A stretch of 64,000 nt of DNA from a candidate division WWE3 bacterium UBA1379 (GTDB lineage Bacteria > Patescibacteriota > WWE3 > UBA101185 > UBA10185). Below the pieces are notes generated by a model. That model was given only the letters and a program-made list of their open reading frames with translations, did no database searches and was not told the origin of the DNA. The position numbers were made by a program, and so were the translations under genes. Positions 5,277 through 34,166 of this stretch are shown one piece after another. The stretch covers positions 13,360-77,359 of the forward strand of contig DBRB01000003.1 of NCBI GenBank assembly GCA_002305475.1, written 5' to 3'. Numbering within the stretch: the first letter of the stretch is position 1; every line of letters starts with the position of its first letter.

Positions 5277-6422
5277 ATGTCTAGTACTGCTCGACGGACA
5301 TCCGCTGCATCAAGAAGATCAAAAACGTACTCAAAAGTTTACAAAAGAACTTCCGTATCAAAAGCGTCAAAAAAAACCATAAGAAAAAGCAGAATATCGT
5401 CCCGTCCTAATCTAGGAAAATCAAAAATAGGTAAAACAGTAAAAAAGATTGCTGCAGTACTGGGTCTTTTTATAATATCGGCTTTATTTGTACTGGCAGT
5501 AGGTTTTTATAAGAATCTGACAAAGAATTTTGCTTCAGCCGATTCGGTAAATTCGTATTCTGTACAGACCCAGGATATCTATTCAGTACTATATATATCG
5601 GTCAGTGACCTAGATCAGGCAGACAGTCCCGACGGCATCCTGGATGTACATTCCATGAGTTTTGTGATTGTAGATAAAAACAATAAAAAACTGGTGAAAT
5701 ATGATATTGATCCGAATATAACTATTGATGTACCGGGGAAGTTCGGAGATGAACAGGTAACAAAAGTCCTACATCTGGGATCATTAAACGCCAAGGATCC
5801 ATTAGAGGGAGGAGTCAGACTGGCTTCCAGAAGTGTTGCTAGGATATTTGGGTATCCGGTAGATAAATACATTATTACGGATGAAAATGTGAAAAATACT
5901 TATGATAGATTATTCAATCATGGCGTAGTGACTCTGGAGCTGGGTAAACCGGGCGGAAAGAAAACGGATTTCACTCTGGAAGAATTTTATAGCCTAGTTT
6001 CTTTTATAAGAACACTACCGTCTGATCGCTTTATTTTTAAATCATTTAATTATGATTACCTACAAAATCCGGATAAGATAAATACGGAAATCAGGGATGT
6101 AACTTTTGACAGCCAGATATCCCTGGAAAAAAAGAGTATATCGGTGTTGAATGGATCGGGACTATCGGGAGTAGCAGGCTATACTTCCAGACAGATTGAA
6201 AATATGGGGGGCAGGGTTGTAACGGTGGGAAATGCTGATAAATCATATGATAAAAGTATTCTTGTTGTGGATGACAAAGAATCAGAGACTGCCAGAAAAC
6301 TTGCCCATAGCTTTGATTTCAAACAGGTAATGACAAGGGAGGAATTCGGTCTGCAGGAAAATGAGGTAGGACGTTCCGATATTGTATTGATTATCGGACT
6401 TGACATTCAGGATATGTTGTAA
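5277..6422 (+). CDS. LytR-CpsA-Psr (LCP) family cell-envelope phosphotransferase with a LytR_C-type C-terminal domain.
   Basis: A basic N-terminus plus a single TM anchor. The LCP core block is VLYISVSD...DVHSMSFVIVDKNNKKLVKYDIDPNITIDVPG...DKYIITDENV. The C-terminus is ISVLNGSGLSGVAGYTSRQIENMGGRVV. Confidence 0.6.
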   Translation: MSSTARRTSAASRRSKTYSKVYKRTSVSKASKKTIRKSRISSRPNLGKSKIGKTVKKIAAVLGLFIISALFVLAVGFYKNLTKNFASADSVNSYSVQTQDIYSVLYISVSDLDQADSPDGILDVHSMSFVIVDKNNKKLVKYDIDPNITIDVPGKFGDEQVTKVLHLGSLNAKDPLEGGVRLASRSVARIFGYPVDKYIITDENVKNTYDRLFNHGVVTLELGKPGGKKTDFTLEEFYSLVSFIRTLPSDRFIFKSFNYDYLQNPDKINTEIRDVTFDSQISLEKKSISVLNGSGLSGVAGYTSRQIENMGGRVVTVGNADKSYDKSILVVDDKESETARKLAHSFDFKQVMTREEFGLQENEVGRSDIVLIIGLDIQDML

Positions 6423-6453
6423 TAACATAATGACATTGTCTCTCTCCTTTCTT

Positions 6454-6489
6454 CACCCCGGTCCCAAATTAGGGCCGGGGTTGTGTTTT
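6454..6489 (+). terminator. Rho-independent terminator after the LCP gene.
   Basis: A GC-rich hairpin CCCCGGTCCC-AAATTA-GGGCCGGGG directly followed by TTGTGTTTTTC. Confidence 0.7.
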
Positions 6490-6495
6490 TCTTAT

Positions 6496-9060
6496 ATGTC
6501 TATATACATCGGTATACCTTTATTACTGATCGGAATTCTAATAGCAATTATTTACAGGCGGATAAAAACCCAGCCACTGGATTTAGGTGCGGTCAGCAAT
6601 ACCCCTTTTGAAGTCCTTGAAATAAAAATGCCAAAGACACTGGAAGCTGAAAGGGAATCCCAGATGTCAGCTTTGTCGGCAGAAAATATGTTTGCCTCAC
6701 TGCACGGACTGTTAAAAGAGGATGCTACTGAACAGGAGCATTTTTCCTTTGAAATGGTGGCGGACGGAGCAAACGGTATCAAGTTTTATGTGGCAGTACC
6801 TCAAAATGTTTTAAAGTTTGTGGAAAGTCAGATCTATGCCCAGTACCCGTCCTGTCAGATCAGGGTAGTTGAGGATTACACTACTAGTGCTGATTTCAAA
6901 CAGGGGGAGTATGAAATATCCTCCGTAACATTAACAAAAGACTATTTCTTTCCTATAAAAACATTCAGAGATTTTGAAATAGACCCTCTATCGGCAATCA
7001 CTTCCGCTTTTTCCGGAGTATCGTTTGATGAACAGGTTTGGTTGCAGTTTCTAATAAAACCTATTCCTGACGGATGGCAGAAACCCGGATACAATTATGT
7101 GGATTTTGTGAGAACCGGAGTGGATAAAACAAATAAACCCGGTATTCTGGGAGAAGTTGGTAAAATATTCTTTAAGGAATTTGTTGATATCGGACTAGGA
7201 ATTCTTACCGGATTGTTTACACCGCATCCTCCTGAACCAAGACCCGGTGCAAAAGATGCTCCAAAGCCTGCTCTTGCACCAAGGCTCACTTCTGCCCAGG
7301 ATATGGAAGTAAAAGCGATAGAGAATAAGCTGTCTAAAATGGGATTTGAGGTGGAGATCAGGATACTATCATACAGCAAGGATAGAGCGAGACTGGAGAG
7401 TAATCTTAGATCTCTTACCGCGTCCCTAAAACAATATTCCACCAGCACTTTAAACGGATTTGTAACAAGTCGTGAAACGCACCGTACTGGAAGTCTGGAA
7501 AACTTTATAAAACGTACTTTCTGTGGAGATAAATCCTTCATTTTAAACGTGGAAGAAGTAGCTTCCGTCTACCATTTACCTACCGGACAGGTAGAAACTC
7601 CGAATATTCAATGGATTTATTCCAAAAAGTCCGAACCCCCCGCAGGGCTTCCCACACAGGATTGTTGCTATATCGGGGAAACCATATACAGAAGCCAGAG
7701 AGTAAAATTCGGTATCGCCAATAATGACGACAGACTCAGACATATGTATCTGATTGGTAAGTCAGGTACAGGAAAATCAACACTATTTGAAACCATGATC
7801 AGTCAGGATATTCAGAACGGTTTTGGAGTCGGTGTATTGGACCCCCACGGAGAAACAATAGATAAAGTAATGGAATATATACCGGATAATCGGCTTGATG
7901 ATGTGATATATTTTGACCCTTCAGATACGGAAAGACCTGTCGGTCTTAATCTTCTGGAAATGACCGATCCTTCACAGAAAAACCTCATGGCATCTGGATT
8001 GGTAGCAGCAATCAAACACCACTTTGATTACTCGTGGGGTCCTCGACTGGAATATCTTTTAAACTATAGTATCTTAACCTTGCTTGAAGTTCCCGGAACA
8101 ACTATGCTTAGCATTACCAGGCTCCTGGAGGATGATAATTATCGAAAATTCATTCTTCATTTTGTAAAAGATCCGGTAACCATCCGCTTCTGGGAAACGG
8201 AATTTAAGAATATGAAGAGTAATCAAAAAATGATCACGGAAGCGGTAGCTCCTATTCAGAACAAAGTTAACAGATTTTTGGCTTCAACTACCATCAGAAA
8301 TATTCTGGGACAGGCTAGGTCCACAATTGATATCTGGGATGCCATGAATAATGGGAAAATCCTGATGATGAATCTATCCAAAGGTAAAATAGGGGAGGAT
8401 AATGCAAATCTTTTGGGGGCACTCCTGGTATCCAGAATTCAGTTTATGGCATTACAAAGAGCAAAAATACCTCCTCAGGAAAGAAAACCGTTTTATCTTT
8501 ATGTAGATGAGTTCCAGAATTTTGCTACTGGTAGCTTTGAAAGTATTCTGTCTGAGTCCAGAAAATACGGCCTTGGTTTATACCTGACTCATCAATACAC
8601 TGCACAGCTGCCGGAGGATCTGATGAGGGCGGTATTCGGGAATGTGGGTACTATTGCCACCTACGCTTTAGGAGCTCCAGATGCAAAGCTTCTGGAAAAT
8701 GAGTTTTCTCCTTATTTCAACCAGGAGGATATTATTTCCCTGGAAAGGTTTAATATCTATATCAAACTAATGATGAATGGAATGACGTCATTACCTTTCT
8801 CTGCTAGAATACTCTTACCTTGGGTTGAGGGTGAAGCGGTGGTTCAAAAGACTCCCTACCATCAGAAAGTTATTGAAATGAGCAGGCATAAATTCGGTGC
8901 AGATCGTGAAATGGTTGAAAGTAAAATCAATAAGTGGGTAGAAACACCGTTTGATAAAGGAATAGCTATAGCTATAGAAAACCGGGAAAAGGCAGCAAAA
9001 GCGGCACAGGAAAAAAGCCTACCTCAGGTAGCCCAATCGGTTGAAGAAATTAAAAATTAG
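6496..9060 (+). CDS. Membrane-anchored FtsK/HerA/VirB4/VirD4-superfamily P-loop ATPase (AAA_10/DUF87-like). It has no neighbouring secretion genes.
   Basis: The track ORF begins with TTG at 6400 and overlaps the upstream terminator. The first ATG after the terminator (6496, MSIYIGIPLLLIGILIAIIY) opens with a TM helix. The Walker A motif YLIGKSGTGKST is followed by DPHGE, then the Walker B motif FYLYVDEFQNF. The downstream RKYGLGLYLTHQYTAQL block is typical of HerA and T4SS coupling-protein ATPases. Confidence 0.65.
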   Translation: MSIYIGIPLLLIGILIAIIYRRIKTQPLDLGAVSNTPFEVLEIKMPKTLEAERESQMSALSAENMFASLHGLLKEDATEQEHFSFEMVADGANGIKFYVAVPQNVLKFVESQIYAQYPSCQIRVVEDYTTSADFKQGEYEISSVTLTKDYFFPIKTFRDFEIDPLSAITSAFSGVSFDEQVWLQFLIKPIPDGWQKPGYNYVDFVRTGVDKTNKPGILGEVGKIFFKEFVDIGLGILTGLFTPHPPEPRPGAKDAPKPALAPRLTSAQDMEVKAIENKLSKMGFEVEIRILSYSKDRARLESNLRSLTASLKQYSTSTLNGFVTSRETHRTGSLENFIKRTFCGDKSFILNVEEVASVYHLPTGQVETPNIQWIYSKKSEPPAGLPTQDCCYIGETIYRSQRVKFGIANNDDRLRHMYLIGKSGTGKSTLFETMISQDIQNGFGVGVLDPHGETIDKVMEYIPDNRLDDVIYFDPSDTERPVGLNLLEMTDPSQKNLMASGLVAAIKHHFDYSWGPRLEYLLNYSILTLLEVPGTTMLSITRLLEDDNYRKFILHFVKDPVTIRFWETEFKNMKSNQKMITEAVAPIQNKVNRFLASTTIRNILGQARSTIDIWDAMNNGKILMMNLSKGKIGEDNANLLGALLVSRIQFMALQRAKIPPQERKPFYLYVDEFQNFATGSFESILSESRKYGLGLYLTHQYTAQLPEDLMRAVFGNVGTIATYALGAPDAKLLENEFSPYFNQEDIISLERFNIYIKLMMNGMTSLPFSARILLPWVEGEAVVQKTPYHQKVIEMSRHKFGADREMVESKINKWVETPFDKGIAIAIENREKAAKAAQEKSLPQVAQSVEEIKN

Positions 9061-9112
9061 CTGATGCGAAAGGAGACACCTTTTTATCGGCAAGAAAAAG
9101 GAGGAACATTTA

Positions 9113-9865
9113 ATGTCCGAAAATGTTAAAAAACTATACAAAATTTTAGACAACCTTGAGCGTGACGTTCGCTATGCAAAAAAGCTGTTGATAGAGGTGC
9201 AGCAGGAGACAAGGAAAGATTACTCCCAGGTACCCGGTGACGAAGGTGTTTATGACGGATTTCATCTTGTAAAGACAGATGGGACAAAGATTGAAGTTCC
9301 GGCTAACTATGCTGCAAAATCGCGTCTGGTATGGGGTGACACTTTGAAAATGATTGAAGAAGAAGGAAAGAAACTTTTTAAACAGATAGCAAAATCTCCC
9401 AGGAAAAGGGTTGAAGGTGTACTTAATAAAAAAGAAGGCAAGTGGTACGTATTGGCGGAAACAGGATCATACAGGGTCAGTGATGTTGCAGTAGATTTCA
9501 ATAATCTTCAGATAGGGGATAAAGTCACCATATTAATCCCAGAAAACAATTTAAATGCTCCATTTGCCACTCTGGATGTCAAACCGGCAGTCATTAAGAA
9601 AGTGGCACCTGAAATAACTACGGATAGTAAACCAATCGTCAAAAAGGTAGAAGTACCTGTTGGAGCAAAAACACCCGCAAAAGAACCGGTGAAAAAGGTT
9701 GTTCCGGCTAAGAGCCGCAGCACATCGGCTTCAAGCTCAGATAAACCCGTATTAAAAGGTTCAAGAAAGCCGGCAGTTAAAAAAGCTGATACCCAAACTG
9801 AGTCTGCGGAATCCAAGGAATATGTCAATCAGATAGGTGTATTAGGGGATGACGATTTAAGATAA
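9113..9865 (+). CDS. Hypothetical protein with a Lys/Pro/Ala-rich, histone-H1-like low-complexity C-terminal tail.
   Basis: A strong RBS (AAAAAGGAGG) sits upstream. The C-terminal 80 aa are KKV/PAK/KPAVKK repeats. Confidence 0.55.
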   Translation: MSENVKKLYKILDNLERDVRYAKKLLIEVQQETRKDYSQVPGDEGVYDGFHLVKTDGTKIEVPANYAAKSRLVWGDTLKMIEEEGKKLFKQIAKSPRKRVEGVLNKKEGKWYVLAETGSYRVSDVAVDFNNLQIGDKVTILIPENNLNAPFATLDVKPAVIKKVAPEITTDSKPIVKKVEVPVGAKTPAKEPVKKVVPAKSRSTSASSSDKPVLKGSRKPAVKKADTQTESAESKEYVNQIGVLGDDDLR

Positions 9866-9888: not shown

Positions 9889-10569
9889 TTATTCTTCAAA
9901 TTCAGTAGGAATTTCAAGTTCCGGTTCATCAATTGAACCTGGTTTAATGTAAGGTTTAACTTCCTGGCGTTCTCCCTTGAATACAGGAATTGATGATCTG
10001 AGAAGTATATTAATGGATTTATCCTTTCCGTTAACAAAATTAGCTGATAAGGTTCCTTCTTGTTCTTTTACTTTATTCATTTTGTTTACAATATCTCCCT
10101 TTAATGAGGAAACCAAAAGATAATCTCCATGTGAGTCTTTCTTATAAAAGTCGGTTTTATTCTTGTATACTTTTACTTCCAGGGCTTCTGCAGGGGCAAA
10201 GCTATCAGCGGAGATCCTTTTAGCAGTAATTTCCATATTTACACTGGCTGTTGTACCTGGTTCTTTAATCAGGCTTTTTGGATCAACTGCTGTATTACCG
10301 TTTCTGTCATGTCTTTCTTCTTTTGCCAGCTTGAGATTTTTTAAAGCCACCGCATTAATTGGGTCTACTTCCAGGACCTCTTTAAAGATCTTTTTAGCCT
10401 TATTGAACTCTTTGGTCTGAAGATATGCGCGTCCTAAACGATTTTTTGCATCTATGTTATTGGGGAGTTTTTCTAATATTGCAAGATTGAGATGTATAGC
10501 TTCTTTCCAGCATCCTTTTAACGATGCCTCTATTGCCTTTTTGGTGAGGGCAGACGTACTGTCTTGCAT
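9889..10569 (-). CDS. TPR-repeat protein with an N-terminal TPR region and a C-terminal domain of unknown function.
   Basis: TPR-like helices AIHLNLAILEKLPNNIDAKNRLGRAYLQTKEFNKAKKIFKEVLEVDPINAVALKNL. Confidence 0.6.
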   Translation of the reverse strand: MQDSTSALTKKAIEASLKGCWKEAIHLNLAILEKLPNNIDAKNRLGRAYLQTKEFNKAKKIFKEVLEVDPINAVALKNLKLAKEERHDRNGNTAVDPKSLIKEPGTTASVNMEITAKRISADSFAPAEALEVKVYKNKTDFYKKDSHGDYLLVSSLKGDIVNKMNKVKEQEGTLSANFVNGKDKSINILLRSSIPVFKGERQEVKPYIKPGSIDEPELEIPTEFEE

Positions 10570-12780: not shown

Positions 12781-12862
12781 AACGACATCAAATAGGCTAG
12801 GGAAGAGGGGAGTAGGGGCTCCGGACCGTGGGGTTGGGGATAAAACCTTAAATTTATTATCA

Positions 12863-13021
12863 TACTATAGGATAGACTGCTAACCTATAGTATAATTGTC
12901 ATATATTTTTTGTAGGATTGTCATAGTATTTAAATTAATTAATACGATGTCGCTCTAACAATTCTTTAACATTATACCCTGTAGTATTGTCATACTTTTC
13001 TCTGTAGGGTTGTCATACTTT
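12863..13021. repeat. Iteron-like repeat cluster inside an 870-bp AT-rich non-coding island. It holds a 10-bp inverted repeat and three or four direct copies of TGTAG-N3-TTGTCATA.
   Basis: The inverted repeat is ATACTATAGG (12863-12872) / CCTATAGTAT (12884-12893). There is a TTGTCATA core at 12896. Direct repeats TGTAGgATTGTCATAgTAT (12911-12929), TGTAGtATTGTCATAcTTT (12979-12997) and TGTAGgGTTGTCATAcTTT (13003-13021) follow. Confidence 0.6.
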
Positions 13022-13652
13022 CCCGAGATAGAGGAATGTGGATATCTTTTTACGCATCAGAAGCCTTCTACGGTTAAAAACGATACTGTGACAGCCTGAG
13101 AGAATTATTCAATTATAAGAAATATATTCCGCAATAAAATAAAAAATATATAAATAAATAATCTATTAATAGGAAATGATCGTGTAATATTTCTATTTAT
13201 TCTCCCCTCATAAATGATATATCTCTTTTTATATCCGGTAAACATGCCTTTGGCGGTCCTATTAGGATTCCCGGGATACAATGTCGTTAAACCGACATTA
13301 TACGAAGTCTCAGATCTCGGACTGTATCGATCCCCTCCGCTGTTTTGTATTCAAAAAAATAACTACCTATTTAAAAAATAAAATAAGAAAAAAACAATCG
13401 AAAATATTTTATTGATTTTATTTACCTATTATTAATTACCTTTTAATTTTTTATTTACTGAAAAATTATTGCTCATTTCCCTAACAATTTTCCCGCAAAT
13501 ATTTATCCTGCCATTTACACAAACTTCTCTCCCCTACTATTCCTTACTGCTACAAGGATTACCTATTATTACTAATGATTAATTTAATTATTAATTTATA
13601 ATTAAATAGAAACTAGTAGACAGCCATAATATATAAAGAAAAAGGAGAGGTT

Positions 13653-29804: not shown

Positions 29805-30476
29805 ATGAATAAAGTACGCCCTGTCCTATTTTTTGTAATTATTCTTGGTTTAATCTCAATATTAGGTATCCTATATATAGTATATTTCAGAGTGGCAGAA
29901 ATTGATCCTAATGCTGCAAATCCATTTGCACAAAAGGTAGACTATGAGAAAATCTTTAAGGATATAAAAGATGAAGATATGATAATAACCTATGTGACTC
30001 CATCTCTCTATCGTGCAGATTCTATTGAGACTAAAGGGATAGTGGTAATTACTACCGGTGAGTTATATGATCTTGATATTCAGGAAGCAAGCAGTGGTAC
30101 AACAATTGCTAAGGCACGGGTGGCGAAAACCGTCACCAAAGATCCGTCAGGAAATATAATTCCGATCGAATGGATCGTTTCATTATATCCAATTGATAAT
30201 AATACAGAAAATTACCTGGACGGAGTATTGAGCAGTTTTCTTACGATAAATAAAAAATCTTCATTGGAAGAGAATTTTATCAATGGAAACTTATGGATAT
30301 TTAGGCCCTACATTCCTTTTGAGAATCTTGAAGTTGATGAAAGACTAAAGAATCTAGCCGTTGCATATTATGGTGATGAGACATTTCTCAGGGATATTTT
30401 TTATGATAAATATTTAAAAGAAATTAAAAAACCGATTATTTTGTCAGGTGTTGATCAATTTCAATCTTATGAATAG
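29805..30476 (+). CDS. Membrane-anchored hypothetical protein.
   Basis: An N-terminal signal-anchor (VLFFVIILGLISILGILYIVYF). The rest has no recognisable motif. Confidence 0.45.
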   Translation: MNKVRPVLFFVIILGLISILGILYIVYFRVAEIDPNAANPFAQKVDYEKIFKDIKDEDMIITYVTPSLYRADSIETKGIVVITTGELYDLDIQEASSGTTIAKARVAKTVTKDPSGNIIPIEWIVSLYPIDNNTENYLDGVLSSFLTINKKSSLEENFINGNLWIFRPYIPFENLEVDERLKNLAVAYYGDETFLRDIFYDKYLKEIKKPIILSGVDQFQSYE

Positions 30477-33111
30477 ATTAAACAATACAAATAAAATATT
30501 CTTCTTTTTTATTATTCTTGTATTTACATTTTTGCTCCAAAACGCCACAAAACAGTTTTATGCTGTTTCTTATGAACTATGTAGACCTGACTGGGAAGAA
30601 TGCAGATGCTGTACTACCGGAGATATTGATGATTTCTTGTGTAGAAATGTTAATTGCTGTGAAGCTTACGATGGAACACCCTGTGATTGTTCCAGGCAAG
30701 TCAGTATACCTGATGGTTGTACAACCTGGGGTACTTCAGCACCAGGATGGACTATACCCACACAAAGATTTCGAACGGAATATATTACTTGTAGGAATGA
30801 TAACGATAGAATGTGTAGAGATAATAATTCGCGAACAGCACGTTATTGTAACATCAACGGGAATGTCATTACTGCTACTGCCAACTATAATTGTACGTTA
30901 AATCCTCATTTAGAAGAACTCAATAGAACAGACGGATATAGAAATATGGACGAAAGACTTTATGAGCCGGATGATACAAGAACTTTTTCCTGTCCAGCAA
31001 ATATAAACGGTTATCTTAAAGTCAGAAGATGGTGGAATAATGCTTCTGCTCCCGCAGGTATGTATGATGCCCAGTATTATACGCCAGCACCTTTTGATAG
31101 ACCTGAGCATATTGCAACAGATCAATGGTGGACAGCACATTATTCAGGATATATTTATATTCCAGCCGGCTGGCGAAGAATACAAGCATGGGGTGCTGAA
31201 GATTGGATTGCAGAATGCCGCCAATTCTGTCAGGGACGCCCTTTTGTAAATTGTGGAACTAATTATAGTGCGTGTGGCTTACCAACTGAAAGATTTACGA
31301 TATATTTGGGTTATAGTAATGTGGATTCGAATACCATAGCCCCATCCGGCCAGATCCTTCCTAACGGAAATATGAGTGGTATGACAAGTATCGAGGTAAC
31401 CGGGGGAAGGAATTATTTTCAGAAATACTTTCAGGAAGGCTGGTATCCTTTACTTATTGATTATCGTCATACTGGTACATATACAAATAGTATTCAGGAA
31501 GTTGATGATGAATCCAGAATGCGAACCAGCACGTCATCTGATGGAAGTACATGGTCTGGATGGGGAGATTTTTCGGCATATCAGTTTAATTCCTGCCAGC
31601 CCGGACCTACCCTGGGACCTGTATGCACAGGTATTACCGGTCCGGCGTCCGTAAACAGAAGCACACCAGCAACATTTACAGCGAATGCCACAGATAGTGA
31701 TACTCCTGCGACTAATCTCCGATACACTTGGTCTGCTACCTGCGGTACAATTACATCTGCAAATCCGCGAACTGGCAATGCAACAATGTCTTGGGGATCA
31801 TCAACCACACCAGGTACCTGTACTATAGGTGCAACCGTCAGCGATGGCACACGCACTGGAGTCTGTCCTTCATTAAATGTGTCGGTTGGAAACAGACCGC
31901 CTGCCACCTGTAATATTTCTGATACTTTTACAGAAATTTATGTGGGTTCATCACGTACTCTGACTATAAATGGTACCGATCCGGATGCTGATCAATTATC
32001 TTATGTCACTTCATTTAATGTTTCACCTCAATGTGGAACTTTAGCTCCGGTTTCTTATTCAACGGTTCCGTCAGGTGCAAATAGGACATTTACGTATACT
32101 GCACCTAATACCAGCAGAAACGGTTGTACTTTGACTGCAACTATTCGTGATCCTTATAACGCTACAAGGACATGTTCATTCAATTTTGATGTGAAAAACA
32201 GAGAGTTTAACTGGTTCATCGGTGTAGACGGTGATATCTTTTCTGGAGATCGTACGGATATGCGTATCGGATTAACTAGCTCAGATAGTTTTTCTACTTC
32301 GTCACGATTTATCGGAAGGGATTATGCCAGTGTCTTTGGGAGGGGTGCATTTGATGTTGTTCGATATCTTTCTAACAATGCTACTCAGAATGCGGAAGTT
32401 GATACGAACAAATCAAATTTTATTGTCAGATATTCGACTGACAATTCCAATAATTATTGGAAAGATTTTCCGGATACGTTTACAGATTCTTCAAGTATTC
32501 CATCATGTAGTGTAAGCGGAGGTATATATATACTTGATGCTGGAGCTGTTTGTAAAATTGGTGTTGGCAATAATGGTTTAGCAGCAAATGTATATCGGGT
32601 TACCGTTCCTGGGTCTGATACTACTGCAAGCAATGATGTTGCATATATTATTGACGTGGGAACATCGGGGGATCTTGTTTTTTCAACCGACTTCAAACCT
32701 GCCGGAAATGGTTATGGACGCGCGGTATTGATTACACAAAGGAATGTGATAATTAGAAAGGATGTAGGTTATGCCAATTGGAATGCGCTGGACTTTAGGT
32801 TTAATATTCCTACCCTTGCACCAGATCTGAATAAGGATATGAAACCTAATATTGCCGCATCGATAATTACTACCGGTAATATTGTAGTTGAATCATCCGG
32901 AGATCCTTCAACAGAAAAGGTATTGTATGTTGATGGGCCATTGGTTGCAAAAGGTAGAATTCAAATGAATCGTTTCCCATACAACAATGCACCGGGTATG
33001 ATTGTCCGTTATCTGCCATGGTACTTAACCAGGATGGCCAATCAGGGCAGTAGTATTATGCTGGATTATGGAATATTAGATTCGGAAATTAAATGGGTTG
33101 GAGAAAATTAA
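30469..33111 (+). CDS. Large secreted Cys-rich protein with a PA14-like region and tandem Ig/PKD-like repeats. It is a candidate adhesin, possibly pilus-associated.
   Basis: A signal peptide (MNRLNNTNKIFFFFIILVFTFLLQNA) and an N-terminal Cys-dense module (CRPDWEECRCCTTGD...CRNVNCCEAYDGTPCDC). A PA14-like stretch is GWYPLLIDYRHTG. Two ~95-aa repeats (...TFTANATDSD... / ...TLTINGTDPDADQ...) are each rich in Thr/Ser/Cys. The track ORF starts at 30448. Confidence 0.55.
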   Translation: MNRLNNTNKIFFFFIILVFTFLLQNATKQFYAVSYELCRPDWEECRCCTTGDIDDFLCRNVNCCEAYDGTPCDCSRQVSIPDGCTTWGTSAPGWTIPTQRFRTEYITCRNDNDRMCRDNNSRTARYCNINGNVITATANYNCTLNPHLEELNRTDGYRNMDERLYEPDDTRTFSCPANINGYLKVRRWWNNASAPAGMYDAQYYTPAPFDRPEHIATDQWWTAHYSGYIYIPAGWRRIQAWGAEDWIAECRQFCQGRPFVNCGTNYSACGLPTERFTIYLGYSNVDSNTIAPSGQILPNGNMSGMTSIEVTGGRNYFQKYFQEGWYPLLIDYRHTGTYTNSIQEVDDESRMRTSTSSDGSTWSGWGDFSAYQFNSCQPGPTLGPVCTGITGPASVNRSTPATFTANATDSDTPATNLRYTWSATCGTITSANPRTGNATMSWGSSTTPGTCTIGATVSDGTRTGVCPSLNVSVGNRPPATCNISDTFTEIYVGSSRTLTINGTDPDADQLSYVTSFNVSPQCGTLAPVSYSTVPSGANRTFTYTAPNTSRNGCTLTATIRDPYNATRTCSFNFDVKNREFNWFIGVDGDIFSGDRTDMRIGLTSSDSFSTSSRFIGRDYASVFGRGAFDVVRYLSNNATQNAEVDTNKSNFIVRYSTDNSNNYWKDFPDTFTDSSSIPSCSVSGGIYILDAGAVCKIGVGNNGLAANVYRVTVPGSDTTASNDVAYIIDVGTSGDLVFSTDFKPAGNGYGRAVLITQRNVIIRKDVGYANWNALDFRFNIPTLAPDLNKDMKPNIAASIITTGNIVVESSGDPSTEKVLYVDGPLVAKGRIQMNRFPYNNAPGMIVRYLPWYLTRMANQGSSIMLDYGILDSEIKWVGEN

Positions 33112-34166
33112 CTAATATGAGTAAATATATTTATAAAAATGATAATAGATTTAAGAAGGGTCAGGCTCTTTTATTGGTGGTAGTAGCCATGACTGTAGCT
33201 TTAGCATTAGGCGTAAACGTATCCGTCAGAACTATATCCAACCTGTCACGTACAACAAGAAGCGATACCGCTTCAAGAGTTCTATCTGCTGCGGAAGCAG
33301 GCGCTGAGCGTTTTCTTTCTCTTGCAGCAGCAGATTTAGAAACTGCCGCCGGCGGAGATATCACATCAGCTTGTAATAAAGTCAATGGGACATCGTCACC
33401 AGACAAAAGTAAATGTACACTTCAGTTCGTAGGTGCAGATGATGTCAATGTAGTTGTAGATGTAAGTGTAGGTAGAGGAGGGCAGGATGAATATACATTT
33501 ATTCTTGAACAGGATACCACCACGGAGGTTCGTGTTAATCAGAACCCAGGTGATGGCGGATACAGATTTGCGAAAGTGTGCTGGAAAAGTATTAACCCTT
33601 CTTATAGAACAGATTTGTACTTAGTAACTTTGGGTACTACTAATACTGATGGAACTCATAGGGTATTAGGTAAACGCGTGCTAAGGCAATCATCAACTAA
33701 TCCATACAAGCCAGGAATGAGTAGTTATTCCTTAGTATCATCTGGGGGTACCGGTCAAATAATTAGTGCAGATTACTCGTCTTCTGATAGTGCTTACTGT
33801 AAAACTTTAGTTACACTTAAAGATGTTGCTGCAGATACAATACGAGCAGTGCGGTTTAGGGCTATTGGAGGAGATGCGGAAGTAACAATAACGGATGTCG
33901 GACGTTTGCCTGCTCAGGGATATACAATTACCGCATTAGGAACTTTATCTCAACCAGGCGGTAATATCATCAGAGAAGTTGAAGTATTCAAATCATATCC
34001 ATATCCCTCAGGTATCTTTGATTTTTCGATATTTTCGGGATCTGGTGGTTGGATAAATCACACCGGACAAACTCCCCCTCCTCCGGTTACACCATTTCCT
34101 ACACCTAGAAATGCCATTCCATTACCGTCGGTACCAACAGTCACTCCTACCCATTCAACTAGTTAA
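33093..34166 (+). CDS. PilX-N/GspK-like pilus-associated protein (paralog 1).
   Basis: The N-terminus KKGQALLLVVVAMTVALALGVNVSVRTISNL...AEAGAERFLSL matches the PilX_N pattern. It is paralogous to 44291..45094, which carries AEAGAERLLIR. Confidence 0.55.
   Translation: MGWRKLTNMSKYIYKNDNRFKKGQALLLVVVAMTVALALGVNVSVRTISNLSRTTRSDTASRVLSAAEAGAERFLSLAAADLETAAGGDITSACNKVNGTSSPDKSKCTLQFVGADDVNVVVDVSVGRGGQDEYTFILEQDTTTEVRVNQNPGDGGYRFAKVCWKSINPSYRTDLYLVTLGTTNTDGTHRVLGKRVLRQSSTNPYKPGMSSYSLVSSGGTGQIISADYSSSDSAYCKTLVTLKDVAADTIRAVRFRAIGGDAEVTITDVGRLPAQGYTITALGTLSQPGGNIIREVEVFKSYPYPSGIFDFSIFSGSGGWINHTGQTPPPPVTPFPTPRNAIPLPSVPTVTPTHSTS

Follow-up and report, generated by a model that had tools for sequence, protein, structure and literature searches.

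Type IV coupling proteins (T4CPs) such as TrwB, VirD4, TraD and DotL combine a membrane anchor, which in the classical members is made of two transmembrane (TM) helices, with a P-loop domain that carries an all-α insertion and a TraG-D_C region. The ATPase considered here has such a P-loop domain with a predicted all-α insertion and the TraG-D_C region, together with a single N-terminal TM helix, and is encoded by candidate division WWE3 bacterium UBA1379, in a 64,000-nucleotide stretch of contig DBRB01000003.1 (positions 13,360 to 77,359 of the forward strand) that is referred to below as the window. WWE3 belongs to the Patescibacteria, for which candidate phyla radiation (CPR) is another name and which account for a large share of bacterial diversity and live as obligate epibionts with tiny genomes. 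A survey of 3,035 Patescibacteria genomes counted 5,713 homologues of VirD4-type T4CPs in 2,918 genomes (96%, about two per genome), together with VirB4 in 2,417 genomes (80%) and relaxases in 103 (Quinonero-Coronel et al. 2025; PMC12102498). The family of the window protein is already catalogued in Pfam, by the combination of DUF8128 with TrwB_AAD_bind, and VirD4-type homologues of its kind have been discussed as T4CP homologues of Patescibacteria; the window locus is one member of a catalogued phylum-wide family, and the interest lies in the family more than in the locus. New here are the homology that sequence alignment indicates, from end to end of the family, to the relaxase-adjoining gene of a Bacillus conjugation module, the separation of the two halves into distinct genes in some lineages and plasmids, and the recognition of the downstream protein as a detachable tail.

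The closest described protein is SEML1_0293 of Southlakia epibionticum, which comprises 921 aa with PF10412, PF12696 and PF01935 from about residue 400 and has been flagged both as a core family and as a Patescibacteria-enriched family (Wang et al. 2023; PMC10633639). SEML1_0293 and the window protein have their Pfam set and layout in common, and both are encoded far from virB4. They differ in that the window gene has a LytR_C neighbour instead of a Sigma70_r4/HARE-HTH (helix-turn-helix) protein and keeps its C-terminal tail as a separate gene. The connection is drawn from this shared architecture and from the Saccharibacteria members of the family.

The window protein represents WWE3 in an ATPase family that is chromosomal, vertically inherited and found throughout the Patescibacteria. 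With a word-indexed search at least 1,581 proteins were obtained at E ≤ 1e-5, far beyond chance; the 120 best of them are 59-73% identical to the window protein. All 120 contain PF26449 (DUF8128) and DUF87 (PF01935), nearly all also contain TrwB_AAD_bind (PF10412), and their source, where a name is given, is candidate division WWE3 or Patescibacteria; the PF26449 assignments are precomputed Pfam annotation on these 120 listed homologues and on P0001, a protein 100% identical to that of the window (P- and L-numbers denote family proteins and homologue loci, respectively). An exhaustive search of 50%-identity representatives matched 23,145 clusters with E ≤ 1e-3, of which 6,233 reached E ≤ 1e-30, and the scan of one genome per species located the family in at least 600 GTDB species. 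The best 80 loci of that scan are near-full-length matches from at least 15 CPR lineages (Saccharibacteria, Dojka-, Nomura-, Uhr-, Buchanan-, Peri-, Peregrini-, Magasanik-, Gracili-, Doudna-, Morani-, Falkow-, Shapiro-, Davies- and Wildermuthbacteria). Among WWE3 relatives a neighbourhood of ~15 kb is syntenic, from DnaB to a Xer-like recombinase, and the locus is core chromosome there and not a mobile element. An earlier note on this DNA, made from the sequence of the window, had described the ATPase as an orphan, a misleading term for a gene that belongs to the vertically inherited core of an entire bacterial radiation and is embedded in conserved housekeeping synteny in WWE3. The same note had correctly remarked that no secretion, conjugation or defence gene adjoins the ATPase, and it named a downstream protein and a tetratricopeptide repeat (TPR) protein as nearby genes. 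The remaining window is given over to housekeeping genes (DnaB, EF-P, RluD, YebC, RuvC, the Xer-like recombinase, GyrA/B, RecG, aminoacyl-tRNA synthetases and penicillin-binding protein 1) and to a type IV pilus locus at ~35-47.5 kb.

The ATPase region (residues ~424-761 of the 886-aa open reading frame) matches DUF87/HerA (3.4e-9) and TrwB_AAD_bind (1.4e-8; 34.5 bits against a cut-off of 20.5) above their gathering scores in Pfam, and TraG-D_C (1.7e-4) exactly at its gathering score. These matches uphold the earlier assignment to the HerA/FtsK/VirB4/VirD4 superfamily. By sequence profile the protein is closest to the coupling proteins: when the PDB was searched with the family profile, TrwB (6e-9), DotL (1e-5) and HerA (3e-3) were recovered and VirB4 was not among the matches; Foldseek on the ATPase matched TrwB, Cag-beta, DotL and HerA, with TrwB aligning to the ATPase half only. 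The similarity to TrwB is weak, at 16 bits with the single sequence and 38 bits by profile. In the predicted structure the interval between Walker A and Walker B holds an all-α insertion that is covered by the TrwB_AAD_bind match and would occupy the same place as the all-α domain of the coupling proteins. A DPHGE motif can be read directly in the translation, and the RKYGLGLYLTHQYTAQ box provides a candidate arginine finger and sensor. In 26 diverse family members Walker A, Walker B and the RKY/Q box do not vary, so that the protein is an active-looking NTPase by prediction. The NCBIfam matches all stay far below their cut-offs (CedD, for instance, scores 35.6 bits where 600 are required, and the HerA entry NF040819 scores 19.9 where 970 are required), and no equivalog was assigned.

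The motifs quoted in the earlier note were confirmed by direct reading, and a single hydrophobic helix is seen at the N-terminus (Kyte-Doolittle hydropathy 2.65 over residues 1-19). A TM-like segment is found at this place in 24 of the 26 diverse members, and the plasmid homologues described below have no TM helix. The RRIK residues that follow the helix imply an N-out/C-in orientation, in which case the remaining protein would be cytoplasmic.

The plasmid homologues place the family in the T4CP lineage of monoderm and archaeal conjugation systems, because they include a full-length homologue within a Bacillus module as well as split versions within haloarchaeal T4SS-like (type IV secretion system) plasmid clusters. 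A tblastn search of plasmids returned 553 records, most of which match the ATPase half only, and 39 in which one place covers at least 80% of the query. The 24.7-kb Bacillus subtilis plasmid NZ_CP032854 encodes an 886-aa 'DUF87 domain-containing protein' that is directly followed by a Replic_Relax relaxase and then by TcpC, TcpE and an AAA_10 VirB4, which together constitute a Tcp-type conjugation module. By hhalign, a diverse alignment of the family (A2) matches this protein with Prob 100 and E 1.2e-53 over columns 72-781, which include both DUF8128 and the ATPase. Gene order and alignment together show the whole architecture within a genuine conjugation module, where it takes the coupling protein's position and is accompanied by a separate VirB4. 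About 35 haloarchaeal plasmids encode the two halves, DUF8128 and ATPase, as adjacent genes; in Halorussus limi the split pair is preceded by a T4SS pilin (PF18895) and by a second, two-TM ATPase. A pLS20-type identity for the Bacillus homologue was considered and rejected, as the VirD4 of pLS20 has a different architecture, two TM helices and 786 aa.

The closest matches outside the CPR that cover both domains (31-33% identity) are found on megabase 'plasmids' of Bacillaceae. On Priestia megaterium pFDU301A (NZ_CP045273, 1.08 Mb; L086), a record with a single annotated feature, the homologue lies in three pieces, and on the Pontibacillus sp. 'plasmid' NZ_CP062975 (0.90 Mb; L088) it is fragmented, with a conjugal pilin gene of the Mbov_0395 type and a further DUF87 protein nearby.

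The region between the TM helix and the ATPase had been described in the earlier note as a domain of ~400 aa of unknown function. The domain is present; it is catalogued as DUF8128, extends over ~330 aa and is modelled with a VirB4-like fold. The full-length AlphaFold2 (AF2) model has a pLDDT of 75 overall and of about 90 in DUF8128. Foldseek on the whole model returned TrwK/VirB4 of R388 in first place (E 1.7e-12 to 4.5e-8, ~950 aligned columns). With an independent model of the DUF8128 domain only (pTM 0.70) the first 14 places were all taken by TrwK/VirB4 (E 1e-6 to 2.8e-4, TMq 0.40-0.49); the match after these had E 0.012. This evidence, which is structural only, suggests that DUF8128 adopts a fold like that of the VirB4 N-terminal domain, a likeness that is new here. 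A hydrophobic helix inserted into DUF8128 (aa 217-239) also scores as TM-like in P0125, P0146, P0155 and P0177. The Bacillus plasmid homologue lacks this helix, which may be an element peculiar to the CPR clade that dips into the membrane.

Clustering of open reading frames over 84 loci revealed that DUF8128 and the ATPase can be separated. Parcubacteria-type lineages encode them in two adjacent genes, DUF8128 with ~415-490 aa followed by an ATPase of ~540-760 aa, and split forms reappear as an 'ATPase-first' class in the search of representatives. In the split forms the TM helix resides on the DUF8128 protein and the ATPase is soluble, which is why DUF8128 looks like a membrane-proximal platform. 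A precedent for stand-alone DUF8128 genes may be seen in TrsD of the pGO1-type monoderm T4SS, a separately encoded protein remotely related to the N-terminal part of VirB4. The TrsD homologues of Patescibacteria mostly adjoin virB4 (1,664 of 2,272), whereas the DUF8128 genes do not.

The 250-aa protein encoded downstream of the ATPase is a detachable C-terminal module of the ATPase, and the two genes of the window form a real unit of a motor and its split-off tail, since the tail domain is fused to the ATPase in sister lineages. Such fusions occur in L005 and P0121, neither of which contains masked bases, and the same domain forms a separate small gene beside paralogous ATPases in L010 and L045, and a separate small gene in L080 as well. 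The tail protein combines a conserved β-rich domain, a linker and an acidic C-terminal peptide and belongs to a family of 119 proteins that is essentially confined to WWE3, a few of them misnamed 'L7/L12'. Across this family the linker contains 19.7% lysine, 12.7% proline and 11% glutamate with a median net charge of +8 and a median length of 88 aa, and 113 of the 119 members end in [DE][DE]DL[RVFI]. The Lys/Pro-rich tail had been recognised in the earlier note, whose description of the protein as histone-H1-like reflects the composition of the linker only. No match to the tail protein was found in Pfam, NCBIfam, PADLOC or the PDB, nor any similarity to the S1 tail of P0116.

Long, low-complexity C-terminal tails are present in about half of the family representatives. 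In P0116 (aa 871-941) and P0148 (last ~100 aa) the tail is replaced by a C-terminal S1 RNA-binding domain, and these sequences hint that the substrate may be single-stranded nucleic acid. Pfam detected no domains in the other long C-terminal tails that were tested. Six tails with zinc-ribbon-like motifs belong to P0196, P0198, P0203, P0228, P0239 and P0257, which have the motif C-x2-C...(V/I)PF-x-P...RP(V/I)YC-x2-C in common, and the motifs are found within the long K/E/P/Q-rich low-complexity tails of ATPase-first forms. Two further tail motifs were rejected as family features, GG.KWY being present in 4 and a terminal G-E-x-I-x-L in 19 of 142 sequences.

A second recurrent partner is a protein of ~350 aa with Sigma70_r4 and HARE-HTH domains, which is encoded directly upstream in 37 of 80 loci. 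Its flanking genes are DprA-TopA in Saccharibacteria and SecDF in Parcubacteria-type lineages. In Southlakia the position directly upstream is held by SEML1_0294, which has 349 aa, is annotated RpoS and is essential (Wang et al. 2023; PMC10633639). The Sigma70_r4/HARE-HTH profile has no match in the 64-kb window, and the WWE3 locus does not include this partner. The only loci in which it occurs together with the tail domain are the tandem loci L010 (2858-11024) and L045 (3752-11204), in which the order is ATPase, tail-domain protein (175-187 aa), Sigma70_r4/HARE-HTH-type protein (326-346 aa) and ATPase. An apparent fusion of the HTH protein to the ATPase, a 1,340-aa reading frame in L030 (6765-10787), is an artefact of a masked run of N; the same run led single-linkage clustering to lump the HTH and ATPase families together, and it serves as a caution for automated fusion analysis.

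The explanation that we favour, and to which we give an even chance, is that the ATPase is a coupling-protein-type motor that serves a T4SS encoded elsewhere in the genome, with the tail recruiting the substrate. By analogy with TrwB, VirD4 and VirB4 the ATPase would form a ring at the inner face of the membrane. DUF8128 would act as a membrane-proximal docking platform, either onto the membrane or onto a VirB3/VirB8/VirB4-type platform. Recruitment of a substrate or partner would fall to the tail protein, with its β-rich domain, basic disordered linker and acidic DDDLR tip, in a manner that may resemble that of the TraD and DotL C-terminal tails. Driven by ATP hydrolysis, the motor would then pass nucleic acid or nucleoprotein on to the translocon, which would most likely be the vertically inherited, relaxase-less T4SS of Patescibacteria.

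Several observations weigh against this explanation. The window protein has one TM helix, not the two of classical T4CPs, and its ~330-aa cytoplasmic N-domain is absent from them. The VirB4-like fold came from the structure prediction of the N-domain and finds no likeness at the level of sequence, the hhalign comparison of DUF8128 with the N-domain of Firmicutes AAA_10 VirB4 giving a Prob of 0.1. Neither a T4SS gene nor a relaxase is encoded in the 64-kb window; the window gene is chromosomal without linkage to either, whereas the plasmid homologues do show such linkage. Across Patescibacteria the T4CP homologues occur in more genomes (96%) than VirB4 (80%), and merely 148 of the 5,713 are near virB4 (Quinonero-Coronel et al. 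2025; PMC12102498). Genetic data from Southlakia point in the same direction. Coupling proteins are often dispensable for the assembly of T4SS pili, and for this reason the non-essentiality of SEML1_0293 is compatible with T4SS coupling. SEML1_0293 was non-essential at all three time points of transposon sequencing (Tn-seq), whereas the T4SS genes are essential; its normalised reads fell from 5,817 through 2,940 to 1,372, a ~4-fold drop over two passages (Wang et al. 2023; PMC10633639).

Less probable, yet the most serious of the alternatives, is a nucleic-acid motor that works independently of a T4SS, i.e. an ancestral coupling protein exapted in the CPR for the transport or remodelling of membrane-associated DNA or RNA. 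Such a motor could resemble ComFA and pull DNA through ComEC, or could act on scavenged nucleic acids or on the chromosome, with the HTH protein or the tail protein supplying the grip on the nucleic acid. It is favoured by a gene that is chromosomal and core and almost never lies beside virB4, by a distribution wider than that of VirB4 and by the recurring nucleic-acid-binding modules, which comprise the Sigma70_r4 and HARE-HTH partner, the S1 fusions, the zinc ribbons and the basic tails. Exaptation of a t4cp gene 'cannot be ruled out' according to Quinonero-Coronel et al. (2025; PMC12102498). In Southlakia the family member is non-essential, as are comEC and dprA, and the supplementary tables for this species contain no text match for 'ComFA' although a ComF-family protein is matched (Wang et al. 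2023; PMC10633639). DprA and TopA are encoded upstream in Saccharibacteria, but this linkage is confined to that lineage and may be lineage synteny, the other flanks being SecDF in Parcubacteria-type lineages and LytR_C in WWE3. The nucleic-acid substrate itself is putative, and an obligate pair of HTH protein and motor is opposed by the essentiality of the HTH neighbour and not of the ATPase; the sole apparent fusion between them is the masked-base artefact. The earlier suggestion of a partner for the pilus system finds no support, given the same confinement of the dprA linkage and the 25 kb that separate the pilus locus from the ATPase, a distance that also weighs against the T4SS-independent motor. 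A broader and rather doubtful version would see the entire family as a core, CPR-wide, membrane-anchored nucleic-acid translocase that was exapted from a conjugative coupling protein and is not a T4SS accessory, for example a motor for the uptake or scavenging of DNA or RNA that these auxotrophic epibionts rely on. The interchangeable tails (the DDDLR tail protein, the S1 domains and the zinc ribbons) or the HARE-HTH protein would then be substrate adaptors, and the VirB4-like N-domain would mark an evolutionary intermediate between VirB4 and VirD4.

It is improbable that the protein serves a second, cryptic envelope machine as an assembly ATPase of the VirB4 type, in which case it would be a divergent VirB3-VirB4-like fusion, composed of the TM helix, the VirB4-like N-domain and the ATPase, and not a substrate receptor. 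TrwK/VirB4 provides the best structural matches over the whole length and the only ones to the N-domain alone, and it has the two-domain layout and the size (~850 aa) of the window protein in common; moreover, the other ATPase of the Halorussus cluster has the two-TM layout typical of T4CPs, which leaves the split pair as a possible VirB4 equivalent. Against this stand the low TM-scores (0.3-0.49), the hhalign result for the N-domain, the lack of Pfam matches to the VirB4 signatures AAA_10 and CagE_TrbE_VirB and a sequence profile that finds TrwB and DotL and not VirB4. VirB3, VirB6 and VirB8 are not among the Pfam-matched neighbours of the ATPase genes, and the Bacillus module contains a separate AAA_10 VirB4 while its family member lies beside the relaxase. 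Patescibacteria furthermore own a monophyletic VirB4 (Quinonero-Coronel et al. 2025; PMC12102498), which in Southlakia is the essential SEML1_0008 (Wang et al. 2023; PMC10633639).

A chromosome motor of the HerA/FtsK type, engaged in segregation, dimer resolution or the repair of double-strand breaks, is very unlikely. HerA and FtsK are pumping ATPases of the same superfamily, the DUF87/HerA match exceeds its gathering score, HerA is found by both Foldseek and the profile search, and RuvC, YebC and a Xer-like recombinase are encoded nearby in WWE3. This synteny is, however, confined to WWE3 and Dojkabacteria, T4CPs outscore HerA in the profile search, and Pfam detects no NurA partner, HAS-barrel, FtsK_SpoIIIE or gamma domain, the window protein lacking the alpha and gamma domains and the 4-TM N-terminus of FtsK and its N-domain not having a HAS-barrel fold. 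Southlakia also possesses a canonical FtsK, SEML1_0096, which is essential, whereas the family member is non-essential (Wang et al. 2023; PMC10633639). The undescribed anti-phage defence module entertained in the earlier note is the least credible proposal, since the weak PADLOC matches to mad8 (5e-12), HerA (3e-7) and DndH (6e-4) cover the generic P-loop region only and amount to no full set of system genes, neither the downstream protein nor the TPR protein has a PADLOC match, no nuclease, methylase or sensor partner is adjacent, and, in contrast to defence genes with their patchy distribution, this gene is core, single-copy-like and syntenic across the radiation.

Should the ATPase supply the essential, relaxase-less T4SS, it would give a clue to the cargo which that machine carries into the host or out of it; as an independent motor it would represent a new use of a conjugation motor. 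The VirB4-like docking domain, the split and fused forms and the detachable tail with its acidic tip offer testable handles for the genetically tractable Saccharibacteria.

The features of the locus are collected in the table below, with coordinates that refer to the 64-kb window and residues that refer to the 854-aa form of the ATPase. The open frame that contains the ATPase spans 6400..9060 and would encode 886 aa. The ATG at 6496, the position from which the earlier note had counted, is the real start, because the homologues are 815-870 aa long, their alignments begin at residue 3-5 of the 854-aa form, and the 73 nt that separate this ATG from the stop codon of the upstream gene at 6422 contain a strong terminator-like hairpin.

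Features of the ATPase locus (residue numbers in the second column refer to the protein encoded by the respective gene)
Feature	Residues	Position	Strand	Remarks
Upstream neighbour		5277..6422	+	Ser/Lys/Arg-rich, very basic N-terminal tail; one TM helix; C-terminal LytR_C (Pfam 5.5e-8)
Leader/terminator element		6438..6491	+	C/U-rich motif (GTCTCTCTCCTTTCTTCACC), 10-bp G+C hairpin at 6455-6481, T-run ending 5 nt before the start codon
ATPase gene	854 aa	6496..9060	+	membrane-anchored protein with DUF8128 and T4CP-type ATPase
N-terminal TM helix	2-25	6499..6570	+	followed by RRIK; AF2 helix 2-25
DUF8128 domain	38-360	6607..7575	+	PF26449, precomputed
Hydrophobic helix insertion in DUF8128	217-239	7144..7212	+	GKIFFKEFVDIGLGILTGLF; poorly modelled
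P-loop nucleotide-binding domain, TrwB/VirD4 type	~388-790	7657..8865	+	Pfam, PDB profile search, Foldseek
Walker A		7756..7782	+	GKSGTGKST; G421, G424, G426 and K427 invariant in 26 diverse members
All-α insertion (predicted)	492-604	7969..8307	+	seven AF2 helices, H492-509 through H598-604, in the Walker A-Walker B interval
Walker B		8491..8511	+	FYLYVDE; D671 and E672 invariant
RKY/Q box		8560..8607	+	RKYGLGLYLTHQ / RKYGLGLYLTHQYTAQ; R689, K690, Y691, Q700 and Q704 invariant in 26 diverse members
Ribosome-binding site of the downstream gene		9100..9104	+	GGAGG
Downstream tail/adaptor gene	250 aa	9113..9865	+	co-oriented, 52 nt past the ATPase stop codon
β-rich domain of the tail protein	~40-157	9230..9583	+	conserved (alignment A1)
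Linker of the tail protein		9584..9838	+	Lys/Pro/Glu-rich, presumably disordered (composition)
Acidic C-terminal peptide		9848..9862	+	DDDLR-COOH, read directly
TPR protein		9889..10569	-	convergent; syntenic neighbour in WWE3 only

The downstream gene begins only 2-3 nt past the stop codon of the ATPase in relatives. The LytR_C-type gene lies directly upstream of the ATPase in WWE3 and Dojkabacteria only, the HARE-HTH protein holding that position in other CPR lineages. The LytR_C protein and the TPR protein are treated here as neighbours of the ATPase unit.

The spacer that precedes the ATPase gene is under selection. Its RNA folds with -22.1 kcal/mol (z -3.1), and the hairpin and T-run that follow the C/U-rich motif are present both in the window and in L001, the two hairpins differing at two pairs, one a fully compensatory exchange of G-C for C-G and the other U-G against C-G. 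The 12-nt core TCTCTCCTTTCT is found once in each of the WWE3-lineage loci L001-L005 at the identical intergenic position and in none of the 83 other loci; the matching elements are located at 7940-7995 in L001, at ~7829 in L003 and at ~7883 in L005. The element may terminate the upstream gene or serve as a regulatory leader for the ATPase gene, itself without a Shine-Dalgarno sequence. Rfam and tRNA scans returned nothing near the ATPase locus. The core TCTCTCCTTTCT resembles the anti-Shine-Dalgarno sequence, and a promoter-like TTGACA-17-TAACAT is located at 6400-6428.

Two further parts of the window drew attention. The ~870 nt at 12781-13652, with a G+C content of ~0.33, contain no open reading frame of at least 60 aa and gave no result in Rfam and tRNA scans; a similar gap follows the homologous membrane-protein gene in L001 and L003. 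Two large open reading frames of 887 and 357 aa (30448-33111 and 33093-34166, both on the + strand) that have no Pfam match precede the type IV pilus locus by about 0.8 kb on the same strand, and a 214-aa reading frame on the opposite strand is situated between this pair and the pilus locus.

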